The position numbers and the translations under genes are program-made. From Escherichia phage vB_EcoP_LNA5: a stretch of 39,091 bases of DNA. Location: sequence record MZ311861.1; one strand, given 5' to 3'. Every line of letters begins with the position of its first letter. The stretch's first letter is position 1. The notes under the pieces are model-generated. The model saw nothing but the letters and a program-made list of their open reading frames with translations, was not told the DNA's origin and ran no database searches. This document shows positions 4,760-27,848 of the stretch, piece by piece.

Positions 4760-6463
<1,704 letters not shown>

Positions 6464-6474
6464 TCACTCCTTAG

Positions 6475-6553
6475 TGGCGTCTCCACGGGGATTCGAACCC
6501 TAATCGCAATAGGCCATCACGACCCGCCGCTCTACCGTTTGAGCTATGGAGAC
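6475..6553 (-). ncRNA. tRNA-like element (pseudo-tRNA?): canonical acceptor stem, D-arm, T-loop and encoded CCA, but no foldable anticodon arm
   Basis: Minus strand GTCTCCA-TA-GCTCAAACGGTAGAGC-..-TTCGAAT-..-TGGAGAC-G-CCA: perfect 7-bp acceptor stem, D-arm GCTC/GAGC with GG, T-loop TTCGAAT. The 26 nt between the D and T arms do not form a 5-bp stem with a U33/R37 loop by hand folding. Confidence 0.35.
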
Positions 6554-6601: not shown

Positions 6602-6620
6602 CCCTACGGTGATAGTTTAG
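6602..6620 (-). promoter_or_regulatory. variant phage promoter (CACCGTAGG core; phi3.8/4 position)
   Basis: ccctacggtgatagtttag: two substitutions at -4/-3 relative to the window consensus; overlaps the lysozyme stop as other copies overlap upstream gene ends. Confidence 0.45.
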
Positions 6621-7075
6621 CCTCGGTCGGAAGTGACCAGTTCATTGGTAGACAGCCAGCGTTGCAAGTCGAAACTTGGACACGCCTTTGGTGCTACGTC
6701 ATGATGTGCTTTGATTTCTGCCTGAGGATACAAGTCCTTCAGGTCAGCCAGCTTGTTGCGCAGGGAGTTCATCTGGGCCGGAGTGAAGTTAGCTTCAAAC
6801 TTGCCCTTAGCGTCAATTCCACCTACAAGGCAGACGCCTACAGACCGTGAGTTCCAGTCCTTAACGTGTGACCCTACGACATTGACCGGGCGTCCCTCTT
6901 CCACAGTGCCATCGCGCTTGATGATAAAGTGGTAGCCTACGTCCAGCCAGCCTTGCTGCTTGTGCCACATACGGATGGTCTCTACCCCGATGTCCATCTC
7001 TGGCTTGGTAGCCGAACAGTGAACGAAGATAGCGTCGGTCCGGGACCGTGGATTGAACTGTACCTTACTTACCAT
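6617..7075 (-). CDS. N-acetylmuramoyl-L-alanine amidase / T7-type lysozyme gp3.5
   Basis: Recalled similarity to T7 lysozyme (..TDAIFVHCSATKP.., ..GWLDVGYHFIIKRDGTVE.., ..HHDVAPKACPSFD.., C-terminal NELVTSDRG). Confidence 0.95.
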   Translation of the reverse strand: MVSKVQFNPRSRTDAIFVHCSATKPEMDIGVETIRMWHKQQGWLDVGYHFIIKRDGTVEEGRPVNVVGSHVKDWNSRSVGVCLVGGIDAKGKFEANFTPAQMNSLRNKLADLKDLYPQAEIKAHHDVAPKACPSFDLQRWLSTNELVTSDRG

Positions 7076-7556
7076 TGTACACCACCAATTCTACGACCAC
7101 CAGATTCAGGTGCTGGGTGAAGCGTTGTGCGTCCGTGGTGTGCATCTGGAGATGCTTATGGTTGAAGACGTGTGAGTTGCTAATCTTCACGTAAACTTCT
7201 TCAGGCTTTCCATGGACGATGAAAGTCTGGCCTACACCAATCTTGTCGATGGTCAGGACTTCACGCTTCAAAGTCACAGGCGGTACGCTCGAAGCTGGCA
7301 GGACTTGAGTGGTTTGGACACCAGTGAGTTTCTCTTCCGGCTTGATTTCCTCAAGTTTCCAATTAAGGACCCATGCTCCCCACATACCCTCAGGCTGAGT
7401 ATTGCAGCCGTTAGACCCATGTTTGTATGCGCCTGGAATCTGGCACTCAACTAGGGTCATTCTTGAATCTGGTACGGGGTCATTCTCACACTTGGTAACT
7501 ATAGTCCCACTAGGCCAGCCATGCGCATCTACTAACAGTTTAAACTTCTTGCTCAT
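7065..7556 (-). CDS. hypothetical protein (163 aa) inserted between endonuclease I and lysozyme
   Basis: ATG at 7556 overlaps the gene 3 stop (ATGA) with AAGGAG 7 nt upstream; no counterpart recalled at this position in T7; no recognisable motif. Confidence 0.6.
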   Translation of the reverse strand: MSKKFKLLVDAHGWPSGTIVTKCENDPVPDSRMTLVECQIPGAYKHGSNGCNTQPEGMWGAWVLNWKLEEIKPEEKLTGVQTTQVLPASSVPPVTLKREVLTIDKIGVGQTFIVHGKPEEVYVKISNSHVFNHKHLQMHTTDAQRFTQHLNLVVVELVVYNGK

Positions 7557-8008
7557 CACTTAACTCCTTTCTTCTTGGGGATGAGTATACCTGAAGGCAG
7601 ACGTACAGTCGCCTCTCGAAGCCACTCAACCGGGATGAATTTATCGGCATACTTATAGCCGTTCTTTTCGCACCATGCGCCATACGTGGTTGGAGACCCT
7701 TTGTATAACTTGGAGCGTGAACTTGAGAACACGAACCGGATGTCTAACTCTGGGTGCTGTTCTCGTACCAGAAGGTGCTTCTTACGGTCATCACTATCGA
7801 AGATACCTTTGGTCTCCACGATGATACCGTTAGGAAGAATAAAATCTGGTGTGTACTTGTGGTCGGAAGCCGGAATCACATAGTTGATATAATGGCTTTC
7901 GTACTCCGCTTTGACGCCGTTCTGTTCCAGCCACTGCTGGTTCTTGGCTTCAAGTCCAGAGCGGTAGGCACCCACAGAGTGCCCCCGTTTTGCAGACCAT
8001 TTGGCCAT
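7556..8008 (-). CDS. endonuclease I (Holliday junction resolvase) gp3
   Basis: Recalled similarity to T7 gp3 (..YVIPAS.H.YTPDF.LPNGI.VETKG..DSDDRKKHLL.REQHPELDIR.VFSSS..KLYKGSPT.YG). Confidence 0.95.
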   Translation of the reverse strand: MAKWSAKRGHSVGAYRSGLEAKNQQWLEQNGVKAEYESHYINYVIPASDHKYTPDFILPNGIIVETKGIFDSDDRKKHLLVREQHPELDIRFVFSSSRSKLYKGSPTTYGAWCEKNGYKYADKFIPVEWLREATVRLPSGILIPKKKGVK

Positions 8009-8753: not shown

Positions 8754-8771
8754 CCTACAGTGATAGTTTAG
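8754..8771 (-). promoter_or_regulatory. phage RNAP promoter variant (phi2.5 position; CACTGTAGG core)
   Basis: cctacagtgatagtttag: single substitution at -3; directly upstream of the SSB gene. Confidence 0.7.
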
Positions 8772-9935: not shown

Positions 9936-11012
9936 TTAACTCTTAACGGTTGGGTTATCTTCCGTTCCACGCCAGCACTTGAAGCTAGGGTGACGAAGGG
10001 ATCCATCTGGGAACCGCTCCATGAAGAGGACTTCACACTGCCATCCTTCGTACGGATTGATTCCACCGAGAATATATGTATCAGTGTTACAGGCTTCCGT
10101 AAACTCATCCTTCTGTTCTTCAGTCAGACCACAAGCATTAACCACCATGCCATCCTCAAGCAGAACCTCAAAGCCAATCACCTTACCTTCGTTAGCCTTG
10201 CCCGTAGTCCCCCACACGAGGCCACACACGGTCCCGTCGATGGTCTCCTCAGGCTTCATTTTCCACATGCCTGACTTCTTGCCGCGCTTGTATTTACCCA
10301 GTGGGTCCTTGACTACCAGACCCTCATGTCCTTCCAGACGCTTCTGTTCGTACAGGGAGTTGAGCGACTCAAGGTCATAGACCGTGTGTGACTCAGACAG
10401 AACCCAGTCGATTTCAGGGAAGTATTTCTGGAGGAGAGGGACGATAGCTTCGGCCTTCAGGCGGGTTACGCTATGGATAGGACCTTCTGCTTTCGGGTCA
10501 AGTATGACGTTAAGGTCCACGATACCGTAGACCACCACGCGGATGTGGTCGGTTGCCAGATGGAAAGGGACCTTATGCTTCTTCTTGGTGTCGATGTCAG
10601 CATCTGGGTTGCCATTCCAAGCGTAGTTCTTAGTGTCTGACCACATGGTACGGATTAGACCTGAGGAAGTGTTGAAGTCGGTTGCAGGAACCATTACCTC
10701 ACCGTCAATCATCAGGCCAGTGCCTTCGTAGCCAGCTTGCTTCAGGAACCACCGCCAGTCGCTAGCCCTCTGTTGATCTTCCACGATGTTGTCGATGTTG
10801 GTCAGGACTGATAGCCAGCTCAGTGCCGGAAGAGGTTTAGACTCCCGGCTCAACCATTTGGCCTCACCAGTAGGGAAGACCGGGATGTTTATACGCACAC
10901 CGTCATACTTCACTTCAGCTTCGAGCGACCCGGCAGCTGCCAGTGCTTTCGTAACTCCTGACTCAGAGTAATCTACAGCGCGGTGCGGGTTAGTTTTAAT
11001 AGTCGTAGTCAT
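9936..11012 (-). CDS. ATP-dependent DNA ligase gp1.3
   Basis: Recalled collinear similarity to T7 ligase (IKTNP..AV, EIKYDGVR, ..MIDGE.., ..EGHEGL.VKDP...YKRGKKSG.WKMKPE.., ..GSLRHPSF...RGTEDNP); TAATG overlap with 1.2. Confidence 0.95.
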   Translation of the reverse strand: MTTTIKTNPHRAVDYSESGVTKALAAAGSLEAEVKYDGVRINIPVFPTGEAKWLSRESKPLPALSWLSVLTNIDNIVEDQQRASDWRWFLKQAGYEGTGLMIDGEVMVPATDFNTSSGLIRTMWSDTKNYAWNGNPDADIDTKKKHKVPFHLATDHIRVVVYGIVDLNVILDPKAEGPIHSVTRLKAEAIVPLLQKYFPEIDWVLSESHTVYDLESLNSLYEQKRLEGHEGLVVKDPLGKYKRGKKSGMWKMKPEETIDGTVCGLVWGTTGKANEGKVIGFEVLLEDGMVVNACGLTEEQKDEFTEACNTDTYILGGINPYEGWQCEVLFMERFPDGSLRHPSFKCWRGTEDNPTVKS

Positions 11013-21284: not shown

Positions 21285-23465
21285 TTATGATAACGACATC
21301 CTTGAATTGGCGAAAGATAAAGCCTGAGCTTGCGTCGTAAACTCAGCGATGAAAAAGTCACTGAATCTGACCGTAGCTCCCGAACCTCCTCCTGTGGAAA
21401 CGTATAGCGCTACAGTGCCAGTGGTAGATGCCTTTCCTACACCGAAAGTGCTAATCCACTCCCCCTGCTTTGTGTAAACACTACCCATGGTAATACCTGA
21501 CGTTATACTAATATCCGCCGAGCCAGATTGTAGGCGTGAGTTAACTCCCCACACGTACCATCTACCGGATGTAATGGTTGTTCTTGTCGATACCATTTCA
21601 TATAAACCGGCTCCGGGGAATGAAAATTCTGTACATGTAGCGGCATGAAGTCCGTCAGATACAGTCGAACCGTTAACGGTGCCGCTGCCAGAAAAATTAT
21701 AGCTACCTGAGTCAAATGTGATAGCCATTAATTTATTCCCTGTCGGCGTATTAAATACTCTCCCTCTTGTTAAGTTGCCCCTCAGAGATAAGTTTGTGGT
21801 AGCTATCGTTGCAGATTGCGATGCGACGGACTCCACAATAACGTCCTTTCCAGAACTGCCGTTTAAATACACGTCATGGGCTACAATGGTGCTTTGTGCA
21901 TCCACGACAATATCCTGATTGCCATCAGCGTTGTCAAAACGGCAACCATAAGTTACTAAGTTGGAGTTGGATAGCTCGATGTTGTTGAGATAAGAATACT
22001 CAGCAAAGAATATCGCTGTGTCTACCAACTTGAGAACTCGCGGTTTTTGCGCCACGCCGTCTACCTGAACAGCCGGTGATGTTGCGATCGCTTCCATCCA
22101 TATATTGGATACCCCGCATGGAGATGTAGGACAGTCGCCCGATTTACTTTTTAAGTATATCCCGCCACCTCCGGAAGCCTCAATAATGGAGTCTTTAAGC
22201 CACCATGCGCCCCCCCCGCCATTATCGACAGTGCCGTCCAGATAGACTGCATAGGTGGAGATGCCATCGAAGTGGATATTGTAGAGGGTATCGGCCCCGC
22301 AATGCATCTCTGAGCCACTAATCGCGTAATACCCCCAATCACACGTAGATATCCCAATATTTCTCCAAGTATTGCCGATGTTCCCGGAAGGCTTCTGAAT
22401 GGCCTTGTTGATGTTGTGGATGTATACATCACTAAAATTATGACGTCCGGAATATTGGTCTGACGGGTCAAAACTAATACCTACGGCCCCGGTTGTCCCG
22501 GAACCATCTATAGCAAAACCACCACTATGGCGGAATTGCCAATGAGGTGTAGCTAAATTAACCTGAACAGTGTTTGTAAAGTCTGCCGGAGTTTTTAGTA
22601 CCGTGGCCCCGCCAACACCTTTTAACTGCGCGTTTCCAATAGTAACTTTTTCAGTATAATTGCCAGGAGACACCAGTAGATCATTTTTTTGCAAAGATGC
22701 ATCTATAGCTGCCTGCAGTGTTGGAAAGTCTTTTGAGTGCAAAACATCATTGTTGTGCTCAAGTAATGTCCTTTCTCCACTGCCTATGTATTTAGCGCCA
22801 TCGCTATCAGACAGGTTTGCTCTAAGTGACGCATCACCAACACTAACCCACGCACTCATCCCAATACCACCAGATGATTCAGGAGTTGAACCAGCGGGAA
22901 CGTTCTTTGGAAGCATACCATCCCAGCGGTAATAATCACCATCCTCTTCCCATAGCAGGACCTCGTTCCATGTTGTAACGTTGAAGCCTTTCTCGAAGGA
23001 GCTACGGGTAATATAGCCAATTTTACCAGCTGCCTTGATACTCGCAGCGATTCGGCGTGCTTCGTCCTCGCTATCCTTAGCGTTGCCAGCAGAGCTACCA
23101 GCAGCATCGGCATATTCCTTCGCTAAGTCAACCGTTTGGTCTCGACCTTCTTCTGCAATATGGATAGCCTGAAGCTCTGAATTGGTAAGGTCACTAGCTG
23201 TCAACACTGAGCCATTCCTGAAGTCTACCACTAAGTCAGTTCCAGTCTGACGGTGAATACGAACGATGTCGAAACCTGATTGGTCAGCCAACATCTCAAT
23301 CATCGTTGGATTAAGGAATCGGTAATCTCGACCAACTTCCAGTACACGGTTCAGGGTAGGGTTAGAGCTATTCACCAGCGTAACAACAACAAACGTTCTG
23401 GCTAGGTAGTCGAACTCTATCCTGTACTGAGTGTTTCCTGAAGGGAATTGTGTAATCGTGGACAT
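21285..23465 (-). CDS. tail fibre / tailspike gp17: T7-like N-terminal adaptor plus divergent beta-helix-like C-terminal domain
   Basis: N-terminal about 150 aa recalled as T7 gp17-like (..FEYLAR.FVVVTL.., ..DGS.L.A.DLN..Q..H.AEE.RD); remainder is Gly/Ser/Thr/Asn-rich with repetitive strands, typical of right-handed beta-helix tailspikes; AAGGAGG upstream; more AT-rich than flanking genes by eye. Confidence 0.85.
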   Translation of the reverse strand: MSTITQFPSGNTQYRIEFDYLARTFVVVTLVNSSNPTLNRVLEVGRDYRFLNPTMIEMLADQSGFDIVRIHRQTGTDLVVDFRNGSVLTASDLTNSELQAIHIAEEGRDQTVDLAKEYADAAGSSAGNAKDSEDEARRIAASIKAAGKIGYITRSSFEKGFNVTTWNEVLLWEEDGDYYRWDGMLPKNVPAGSTPESSGGIGMSAWVSVGDASLRANLSDSDGAKYIGSGERTLLEHNNDVLHSKDFPTLQAAIDASLQKNDLLVSPGNYTEKVTIGNAQLKGVGGATVLKTPADFTNTVQVNLATPHWQFRHSGGFAIDGSGTTGAVGISFDPSDQYSGRHNFSDVYIHNINKAIQKPSGNIGNTWRNIGISTCDWGYYAISGSEMHCGADTLYNIHFDGISTYAVYLDGTVDNGGGGAWWLKDSIIEASGGGGIYLKSKSGDCPTSPCGVSNIWMEAIATSPAVQVDGVAQKPRVLKLVDTAIFFAEYSYLNNIELSNSNLVTYGCRFDNADGNQDIVVDAQSTIVAHDVYLNGSSGKDVIVESVASQSATIATTNLSLRGNLTRGRVFNTPTGNKLMAITFDSGSYNFSGSGTVNGSTVSDGLHAATCTEFSFPGAGLYEMVSTRTTITSGRWYVWGVNSRLQSGSADISITSGITMGSVYTKQGEWISTFGVGKASTTGTVALYVSTGGGSGATVRFSDFFIAEFTTQAQALSFANSRMSLS

Positions 23466-26500: not shown

Positions 26501-27417
26501 AGTTGAGCACCAGTCCCGGCCTTGGCCTTCTCTTGGTCCAACTTCTGGTTCTCAAGCGCCAAGTTAATCAGCTCAGTCAGGTTCTGAGGGGAACCACCAG
26601 TGATGACTCCGTAATACTGAGGCAGAACCCCAGCGTTACGAATCTGGTCCAGCTCCTCACGAGACCACTTATGGTTATTCCATCGGGTTGGGTTGAACAC
26701 ATCGCCAATGACATCCAGTGAGTCCTCAGTCTGACCAGCTCTGATAGCCACGCCGACCATAGAGTTCTTCACTTCAGCTTCTGTAGCCGCACCGAAACCG
26801 AACCACGTAGAGCGATCCTCTCGTTCCTGCATGGTCTCGCCAGTAGCCTTATAGAACATCTCACCGAACGATTCGTTGGGAGCTTCAGGTGCTTGACCCT
26901 CAATGTTTAGACCAGCAGCGGTCGGAAGGTTCTCACCCAGAGCTACTTTAGGTTTAGCCTTGAGTCCTTCCGTGAGTGCGTCAAATACGTTAGCGCTTAC
27001 TGGTGGAGTCTTTGGGCTAATGCCATTGAGTGCTCGTGCGACTCCCTTCTGATAGACTTCAGGGTCGTACCGTGAGCCTGTCTCATGGTAGCCGATAGCC
27101 TCAGACAGAGAGGCGAGGACATCAGGGTTCGTCAGGTCGATACTTTGTGTTGCCGGGATGCCCGTAGCCGAAGCCACTGACTGAATGTACGCCTGAGTGT
27201 CGTTCTCGTTAGGCGGTGCCCAGCGGGTGATAATCTTCTCGATAGAGTCATAACCTTGGCGACCATAGCTTTGAAGGTTTTTAGCTAAGGCTCGGACCCC
27301 AGATTCAGGACTATCGAAGATAACGAACGCACCATCATCACCTATAGCACCTTCCCATTGGTCTTTGGACTTACGGAGGTTCCCGGGGTTTGAGTTCCTT
27401 ACTCCACGTGTTGCCAT
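23530..27417 (-). CDS. internal virion protein D gp16 with non-T7 N-terminal domain
   Basis: 1295 aa; from about residue 200 onward collinear with recalled T7 gp16 (..TWFGF..A.EAE..NS.., ..GVDPL.YVP..G.., ..RLEARETARN.., ..DLVRSPTGMQSGASGK.., ..AMDLWR.., C-terminal ..NDP.TQ.L.L..); N-terminal about 130 aa (MATRGVRNSNPGNLRKSKDQWEGA..WAPPNENDT..) differ from the recalled T7 transglycosylase domain; GAGGAG upstream. Confidence 0.93.
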   Translation of the reverse strand: MATRGVRNSNPGNLRKSKDQWEGAIGDDGAFVIFDSPESGVRALAKNLQSYGRQGYDSIEKIITRWAPPNENDTQAYIQSVASATGIPATQSIDLTNPDVLASLSEAIGYHETGSRYDPEVYQKGVARALNGISPKTPPVSANVFDALTEGLKAKPKVALGENLPTAAGLNIEGQAPEAPNESFGEMFYKATGETMQEREDRSTWFGFGAATEAEVKNSMVGVAIRAGQTEDSLDVIGDVFNPTRWNNHKWSREELDQIRNAGVLPQYYGVITGGSPQNLTELINLALENQKLDQEKAKAGTGAQLAAGVIGAGVDPLTYVPIAGQVGKGGKLVNKMFTVAAQSGAMAGASEIARTSVAGGDAHVAEAIMGGALFGGGMTAIGDAIGKALGKSTNEFAGPATRLEARETARNVDGQDLSRMPIREGEETFSHQGVKFADVPNEPGSVRLEDGSILIGENPLNPKTRKVFDEVIEPERAAAGVNLGGLTEIGLKLLRSENPEIRGVAADLVRSPTGMQSGASGKIGTTASDVFERLRAVDHRFYNDIDDAVTEALKDPYFQTAFWRDSGAFRQDIYQRVSMAIEDGSGNLKAELTPGELKVYDLLKNQFDAKREMMENPAMFGRPDAQSIFPGSRFKGTYVPHVYSNQMKELYIKELGSPEALQEAIKKSWLTSYASRPEVKKRVDEALLEADPTLTPEGLAAAVDKYANDKAYGISHTEQFERSSVMEENINGLVGLENNSFLEARNLFDSDMSIVLPNGQTFSVNNLREWDMDKIVPAYNRRVNGDIAIMAGTGKTTKDMKDLVETLMNKAGDDGKLKGEVSTLRDTLKILTGRARRDGADDAAFATVMRTMTDLSFFAKNAYMGVQNLTEIGGMLARGNVRAMLHGVPIFRDLAFRNKKVGASEIKDLHNVIFGKELDDSIRPSKQDVIDRLRSYSDLGRGTATALGTAKYYTGELAVRSPFTKVLNGTTNYLLDAGRQGFLSDIVEHSLTGSKRKFDDRWLKTAGISDEQWKGIKSLIRESVTRGPDGKYTIKDKKAFSQDPRAMDLWRMGDTIADETLLRPHKLSNMDAKAYGPIAKTVLQFKNFVIKSINGRTMRTFYNATKNNRAMDAALSTVMSMGLAGMYYMAQAHIKAYAMQDGRDREYLKQALNPTMIGYAALSRSSHLGGPLGVANILGGIAGYEDTKMLRSSILPRSPTEKTEKPIAFGAASSGPVMNVVGNFLEQVPAFGYAANVGATAYNLAGYLKADTRVNERDYMTGMYNTFRELVPNDPITQKLLLGTFEEQGIHIKD

Positions 27418-27848
27418 GTCTTTCTCCTCAAGATATTTCTAATAGAAACCGTACTCACTCCATAGCGTTCCGCCAAGAGTGAAACCTTTAGGCCGCTGGA
27501 CCTTATGTCTCTCACAGTTTCCTCAGTGAGCTTAGACACTCCTATGGAGCATCCTGACGCTTGGCGACCTCTATTCACCTTATCCTTTATGTTATCGGCT
27601 TGGGTGCCGACTTCAAGGTGTCTGGGGTTTATACAGGACGGGTTGTCACACTTGTGGCGGACAACGTACCCATCGGGTATAGGACCGTTAGCAAGCTCGT
27701 AAGCAAGTCTGTGCGCTCCATACTTTACCCTATTAATCATTATCCTTCCATAGCCGGACTTCTCAATGCTTCCGGTGAAGCGGATACAGCCAGACTCTTC
27801 TGTTACTGACAGTTCTGCCAGTCTCTCACTGGCTGTCCCGTTCTTCAT
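27399..27848 (-). CDS. HNH homing-type endonuclease
   Basis: 149-aa ORF with HNH signature ..GYVVRHKCDNPSCINPRHLEVGTQADN.. and helix-turn-helix-like C-terminal region; AAGGAG 6 nt upstream; starts 2 nt after the gp15 stop and overlaps the gp16 start by 19 nt. Confidence 0.85.
   Translation of the reverse strand: MKNGTASERLAELSVTEESGCIRFTGSIEKSGYGRIMINRVKYGAHRLAYELANGPIPDGYVVRHKCDNPSCINPRHLEVGTQADNIKDKVNRGRQASGCSIGVSKLTEETVRDIRSSGLKVSLLAERYGVSTVSIRNILRRKTWQHVE

Follow-up and report, generated by a model that had tools for sequence, protein, structure and literature searches.

The closest described counterparts of the gene analysed here are gp3.2 of Escherichia phages K1F and EcoDS1 and the equivalent gene of Citrobacter phage CR44b, annotated as 3.01, which belong to the same family, share with it the slot, the overlaps with the neighbouring genes and a two-module architecture (type A, see below), and show no essential difference from it. 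The family corresponds to PHROG 16385 and part of it to PHROG 15211, both annotated as function unknown, and in the literature we found gp3.2 named only in table entries, with no functional work. Phages of the K1F-like group, including LM33_P1, are used as therapeutic and engineering chassis. Among better known phage proteins, a comparison can be made with T7 gp2 (an inhibitor of RNA polymerase), gp4.5 (of Lon), gp5.9 (of RecBCD) and with gp5.7, which gp3.2 resembles in size, in early or middle expression among DNA-metabolism genes, in its restriction to a lineage and in having no enzymatic motif. The likeness is one of genomic context, as gp3.2 shares no sequence similarity with any of the four. 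We know of no T7 protein that combines a constant with a swappable module.

The gp3.2 locus and its family

The window, i.e. the whole stretch of 39,091 nucleotides analysed (Escherichia phage vB_EcoP_LNA5, MZ311861.1), appears to be a full genome, circularly permuted and given as its reverse complement; all its T7 homologues are on the minus strand. The gp3.2 coding sequence occupies positions 7065–7556 of this strand, starting with an ATG at 7556–7554 and coding for 163 amino acids before a TAA stop at 7067–7065; an in-frame GTG one codon upstream (7559) is an alternative start that would give 164 amino acids. Upstream lies gene 3, endonuclease I (7556–8008, minus strand; Pfam Phage_endo_I, E 4e-81; 64% identity to T7 gp3), and downstream gene 3.5, the amidase/lysozyme (6617–7075, minus strand; Pfam Amidase_2, E 8e-17; 70% identity to T7 gp3.5). 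At the first junction the minus strand reads AAAGGAGTTAAG TGA TGA GC. The first TGA (7558–7556) is the endonuclease I stop and has one base in common with the gp3.2 ATG, while a second in-frame TGA generates the ATGA motif, so that tandem gene 3 stops (TGATGA, 7553–7558) overlap the start of gp3.2. The ribosome-binding site, AAGGAG (7564–7569), is located inside the end of gene 3, 7 nt 5' of the ATG. Judging from the sequence, this overlap is a case of translational coupling from gene 3 to gp3.2. At the other end, the last 11 nt of gp3.2 (7065–7075) overlap the start of gene 3.5 (ATG 7075–7073), for which the Shine-Dalgarno sequence is a weak GGTGGTG (7080–7086) built from gp3.2 codons. A programmed frameshift fusion of gp3.2 and gp3.5 was considered and rejected, since a +1 shift would be required and the sequence offers no slippery site.

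A scan with the phage RNA polymerase promoter consensus TAAACTATCACYRTAGG gave 11 matches in the window where chance predicts 0.01, and every match is on the minus strand. One is located before gene 2.5 (8754–8770), at a site that is also annotated as a promoter in CR44b, and the next one at the end of gene 3.5 (6603–6619), where it would drive the gene 4 leader. No phage promoter was found by the consensus scan between these two, and no convincing terminator either, the sites given by the terminator scan being no more numerous than those of shuffled sequence. Lying between the promoters at 8770–8754 and 6619–6603, genes 2.5, 3, 3.2 and 3.5 form one promoter-free unit of middle genes, and the transcription unit of gp3.2 is predicted to start at the promoter before gene 2.5. 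These results bear out most of what a sequence-only reading had claimed for the locus: a 163-aa ORF between endonuclease I and lysozyme, at the coordinates given but on the minus strand, coupled by ATGA to the gene 3 stop, preceded by a ribosome-binding site and sharing 11 nt with the lysozyme start. Its view that the gene is built into the operon is supported by the coupling on both sides and by the absence of an internal promoter or convincing terminator. Its statement that T7 has no gene between 3 and 3.5 agrees with the T7 record, where the end of gene 3 and the start of gene 3.5 are both at 10706.

By profile, by position and by its invariant residues, the ORF is the gp3.2 of K1F-like (Kayfunavirus) phages and, as a gene, was already known. 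It matches phrog_16385 over residues 1–163 (E 5.4e-95) and phrog_15211 over residues 94–163 (E 4.3e-39), and all the residues that define the C-terminal part of the family (V-G..F, Y..SNSH.F, QMH.T and RF) are present. Over the 1.8-kb segment compared, the window is 98.5% identical to LM33_P1, its nearest relative. The term orphan, used in the sequence-only reading, has to be dropped in view of the gene names in K1F, EcoDS1 and CR44b, the assignment to PHROG 16385 and the tblastn matches of the protein in 220 phage records. That reading had also held that homology to a routine known protein would speak against its claim, and here the outcome is divided: homologues exist, which goes weakly in this direction, and all of these gene 3.2 relatives are uncharacterised, none being of known function. 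Its statement that no motif could be recognised stands as far as curated collections are concerned. Profile searches of Pfam, NCBIfam, PADLOC and PDB returned nothing beyond a chance-level match to HAS1 (E 0.97); in Pfam the window protein had no family at E≤1, ten relatives had none at E≤5, and PADLOC-DB gave no family at E≤10. HMMs of the two modules, run against every six-frame ORF in T7 and in the window, revealed neither a T7 counterpart nor a paralogue in the window. One apparent functional label was discarded. The record OR594184.1 (vB_EcoM_SHAK9454) carries the labels 'Endonuclease VII' and 'DNA polymerase I' over the gp3.2 region, but it is marked UNVERIFIED and its feature table seems misregistered, so its annotation is not to be trusted.

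The gp3.2 region matches 225 phage records, essentially all of them K1F-like (genus Kayfunavirus). In a database of 5.8 billion clusters (90% identity) there were 255 clusters related to gp3.2, and a profile search of 1.84 billion representatives recovered only the gp3.2 family itself, in 17 clusters at 50% identity. The setting of every locus inspected was a T7-like contig, and in all of them the slot was directly after endonuclease I (K1F, CR44b, Dev2, STP-SP6, SP7, EPr2, PSTCR2 and metagenomic contigs). Within the databases searched, the family is closed and lineage-restricted. Its absence from T7 and the recovery of only 17 clusters at 50% identity, in T7-like loci, show gp3.2 to be accessory. 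It is a middle (class II) gene, carried by K1F-like phages and by a few relatives among the unclassified Studiervirinae.

The two borders of the slot behave differently. The overlap with endonuclease I is 1 or 4 nt in most homologues inspected (4 nt in K1F, Dev2, STP-SP6 and EPr2; 47 nt in the P0135 contigs), and the 11-nt overlap with gp3.5 is also found in Dev2, CR44b, K1F, SP7 and EPr2. Where the slot contains extra genes, these always lie between gp3.2 and the amidase: a homing endonuclease in Salmonella phage STP-SP6 (HNH_3, Pfam E 1e-14; L004, 1784–2233), an ORF of 118 aa in the P0135 contigs and a pair of ORFs in PSTCR2. The inserted genes are thus an HNH homing endonuclease and proteins without a family, and the gp3.2/gp3.5 junction is a recurrent insertion site. 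As insertions occur on the gp3.5 side only, the link of gp3.2 to gene 3 is tighter than that to gene 3.5. Nevertheless, such tight coupling is weak functional evidence because overlaps are common in T7-like genomes.

Modular architecture and divergence of gp3.2

Comparison with its relatives divides the window protein into an N module of type A (residues 1–72; 7341–7556, minus strand), a linker (residues 73–94; 7275–7340, minus strand) and a C module (residues 95–163; 7068–7274, minus strand). The C module is the constant part of the family and corresponds to PHROG 15211. It is basic (pI 9.2), contains VG..F, YVKISNSHVFN, QMHTT and RF, and has a mean column entropy of 0.20 over 115 clusters; beyond the QMHTT strand, invariance is limited to R and F. 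On its own it makes up a 74-aa protein in Cronobacter phage Dev2, in Citrobacter phages SH3–SH5 and in many IMG/VR contigs. In Dev2 and SH3–SH5 this stand-alone form is 77% identical to residues 94–163 of the window protein and has the same slot and the same 11-nt overlap with gp3.5, without the N module and the PASSVPP motif of the linker, which makes the N module of the window an add-on. Since it can exist alone, the C module is the functional core of gp3.2. In the tblastn search, 160 of the 220 records fell in the 60–80% identity band, where the sampled rows span the C part only, and the match covered at least 80% of the query in 54.

Some relatives have another module in place of this N module, some have it doubled with a middle module, and some lack it. 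Four types could be counted, A (about 54 records), B (about 21, Salmonella phages), M (about 27) and E (about 4), each found only in the gp3.2 slot, and at least three further ones exist (P0124, P0130 and P0135); at least five unrelated modules replace type A. Type M sits in the middle of three-module forms of 221–227 aa. None of types A, B, M and E has a match in Pfam or to an annotated PHROG, and there is no clean correspondence between N-module type and host genus. The type-A linker ends in an invariant, proline-rich PASSVPP (residues 87–93; the end of the linker was noted at 7275–7295, minus strand, residues 88–94), which is kept behind the unrelated N modules A, B, M and P0124 and which neither the stand-alone C form nor type E has. 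From this distribution PASSVPP may mark a recombination boundary or may be an internal ligand of the SH3-like module. An origin of the modules by internal duplication was not upheld: the hhalign comparison of M with C gave a full-length P of 0.03, which hints at a relation without reaching significance, and nothing was found for N against C or M against N.

Structure prediction, which the sequence-only reading had proposed as a check, succeeded for one module and failed for the other. In the full-length AF2 model only the N module is resolved (pLDDT 87–95), as a predicted five-stranded SH3-like barrel; the linker has a pLDDT below 50, and the C module, with a pLDDT of 58, gave no resolved structure. 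The SH3-like barrel is a classic binding fold. With SH3, SH3b, KOW and Tudor barrels the N module shares a likeness of fold only, no SH3, SH3b or KOW profile in Pfam matching at E≤1, and its sequence identity to the structural matches is 4–20%, mostly 4–17%. Against viral models, Foldseek retrieved only uncharacterised small phage proteins. The fold as such is too common to specify a function. For the C module, the invariant His and Asn raised the possibility of an HNH or beta-beta-alpha-Me nuclease, which was rejected since the motif does not fit and no member of the family matches an HNH profile, unlike the neighbouring ORF of STP-SP6 with its HNH_3 match (1e-14).

ORFs of 163-aa length are also present in non-coding frames of the window, so that ORF length alone proves nothing and the evidence for coding has to come from conservation. 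Two independent isolates, LM33_P1 and vB_EcoP-101118UKE1, encode a gp3.2 with 100% identity to that of the window, and the reading frame is intact in the nucleotide sequences of 11 type-A genes and in 115 full-length type-A protein clusters. Pooled over pairwise Nei-Gojobori estimates for the 11 genes, dN/dS is 0.11 in the C module, with a value of 0.18 in the core of the N module. All this indicates that gp3.2 is a real gene under selection. The pooled pS of the C module (about 0.16) is close to that of the flanking genes (0.06–0.19), and with such ordinary synonymous divergence the constraint must act on the protein and not on an overlapping DNA element.

The N module behaves in a very different way. 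Its pS ranges from 0.24 to 0.78, compared with 0.06–0.19 in endonuclease I and the amidase, and between the window and CR44b the synonymous difference is 0.72 for the N module and 0.41 for the C module, as against 0.06 for endonuclease I and 0.17 for the amidase. In these comparisons the N module stands out as an island of divergence within a well-conserved block of replication genes. Some pairs (K1F and Providencia phage EPr2, L008 and L009, L035 and L036) have a near-identical N module (pS 0–0.03) and a C module with a pS of 0.15–0.27, from which it follows that the two modules have separate histories. The pattern indicates that recombination exchanges the N module separately from the C module.

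Type-A modules combine a rigid core (G13, W14, C23 and G57-M-W-G-A-W62, i.e. GW, C23 and GMWGAW) with hypervariable surface positions, of which 11, 28, 30, 31, 43, 64 and 66 take 14–18 residue types each. The 22 most variable positions have a pooled pN/pS of about 1.2, a value that is biased upward because the positions were picked by their amino-acid variability and that is no proof of positive selection. In the closest informative pair, the window and SP7, pN at the variable positions was 0.26 and pS 0.09. The window protein has its own set of residues at these positions. It is 72–100% identical to the type-A records listed and 66% identical to CR44b; its length is 163 aa, compared with 157 aa in K1F, the linker being 6 residues longer in the window copy.

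Possible roles of gp3.2

We tentatively favour, as the first among several possibilities, that gp3.2 is a host-directed factor acting in takeover or counter-defence. What inclines us to this reading is the combination of presence/absence polymorphism, cassette swapping and hypervariable surfaces, which are typical of conflict interfaces. The protein would be transcribed from the promoter before gene 2.5, translated in coupling with endonuclease I and, with no catalytic motif, would act by binding. Its C module would dock on a conserved partner, present either throughout the Enterobacterales hosts or within the phage, and a second, fast-changing specificity would come from the N module. The window phage has no BLAST-detectable T7 gp0.7, 1.2, 4.5, 5.5 or 5.9, and host-directed functions may hence rest with unrecognised proteins. 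The role is deduced solely from the evolutionary pattern and the genomic neighbourhood, nothing tying gp3.2 to a host factor or a defence system. Counter-defence in particular has to face the extreme conservation of the C module, which is unusual for such proteins and fits a partner in the phage's own machinery equally well.

The main competitor takes up this last point and is rather unlikely, if worth keeping in mind. gp3.2 would be an accessory of DNA metabolism working with endonuclease I or with replication and recombination proteins, its basic C-terminal barrel binding DNA, perhaps branched, or endonuclease I itself, and the N module modulating or targeting the activity. The tight coupling to gene 3, the basic C module and a near-invariance matching that of the surrounding phage machinery are all in line with it. 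Yet T7, T3 and other Studiervirinae have the same endonuclease I without gp3.2, and adjacency is weak evidence when T7-like genomes in general keep the same gene order and overlaps. A partner such as phage DNA or a conserved phage enzyme would hardly account for an N module that is hypervariable and swapped wholesale, and a basic character is not general in the family, the P0135 protein being acidic overall (pI 5.8), unlike the basic C module of the window protein. An accessory of lysis is improbable, whether as an SH3b-like cell-wall-binding subunit of the gp3.5 amidase or as a modulator of the inhibition of the phage RNA polymerase by the amidase. The link to gp3.5 breaks easily, an HNH gene or one to two others being inserted in STP-SP6, in the P0135 contigs and in PSTCR2. 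The peptidoglycan of enterobacteria is uniform in its chemistry, giving no reason for swapped or hypervariable binding modules; no SH3b profile of Pfam matches, and T7 lysozyme works alone.

We consider it highly improbable that gp3.2 is a selfish or functionless remnant, such as the DNA-binding part of a homing-endonuclease gene that has otherwise decayed, retained only for the translation signals it carries for its neighbours. Its slot is indeed a landing site for HNH homing endonucleases and its last codons hold the Shine-Dalgarno sequence and the start of gp3.5. Against this, purifying selection extends over the whole C module (dN/dS 0.11) and not only over the last codons, the reading frame is intact with the constraint on protein rather than DNA, and there is neither a nuclease motif nor a Pfam HNH match. 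The remaining weight falls to something else, and no result here links gp3.2 to any specific partner.

Returning to the host-directed reading, a more specific version of it, possible although doubtful, is that gp3.2 represents an undescribed modular class of phage host-interaction proteins, with a constant effector barrel and a swappable, hypervariable SH3-like barrel. If so, the constant barrel would hit a conserved enterobacterial target, exchange of the N cassette between co-circulating phages would serve to recognise or escape a host factor that varies, e.g. a component of a defence system, and the gene 3/gene 3.5 junction of Kayfunavirus would be a hotspot of the arms race. What appears to be new here is the modular hypervariable design, of which we found no description in the literature, and not the gp3.2 gene call itself. 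With this evolutionary signature, gp3.2 is a sensible candidate for a strain-level determinant of host range or defence evasion in K1F-like phages.

Other features of the window

A tRNA-like gene (6475–6553, minus strand) is located in the 143-nt leader between the 6619–6603 promoter and the start of gene 4 at 6460, in the slot occupied by gene 3.7 in K1F and CR44b. ARAGORN identifies it as tRNA-Thr(CGT), and the Rfam tRNA model scores it at 36.7 bits (gathering threshold 29). The acceptor, D and T arms are good and the anticodon region is 21 nt long, compared with 17 in the model. The 156-nt spacer at this place has matches in 177 phage records, 34 of which cover at least 80% of it, and is annotated elsewhere as tRNA-Thr, tRNA-OTHER, pseudo-tRNA or nothing. 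It may be a functional tRNA, a processing signal or a mimic; to our knowledge, carriage of tRNAs is not generally attributed to T7-like phages.

Compared with T7, the window has no BLAST-detectable homologue of genes 0.4–0.7, 1.1, 1.2, 1.4–1.6, 4.1, 4.3, 4.5, 4.7, 5.3, 5.5, 5.9, 6.3, 7, 19.3 and 19.5. Between the homologues of genes 15 and 16 there is a 149-aa ORF (27399–27848, minus strand) with 49% identity to T7 gp7.7 and 37% to T7 gp2.8, which are HNH endonucleases. It resembles an inserted homing endonuclease within the block of internal virion proteins, where T7 has none. The tail protein has 726 aa (21285–23465), and only about 110 aa at its N-terminus match T7 gp17, which fits a tailspike with a swapped receptor-binding part.
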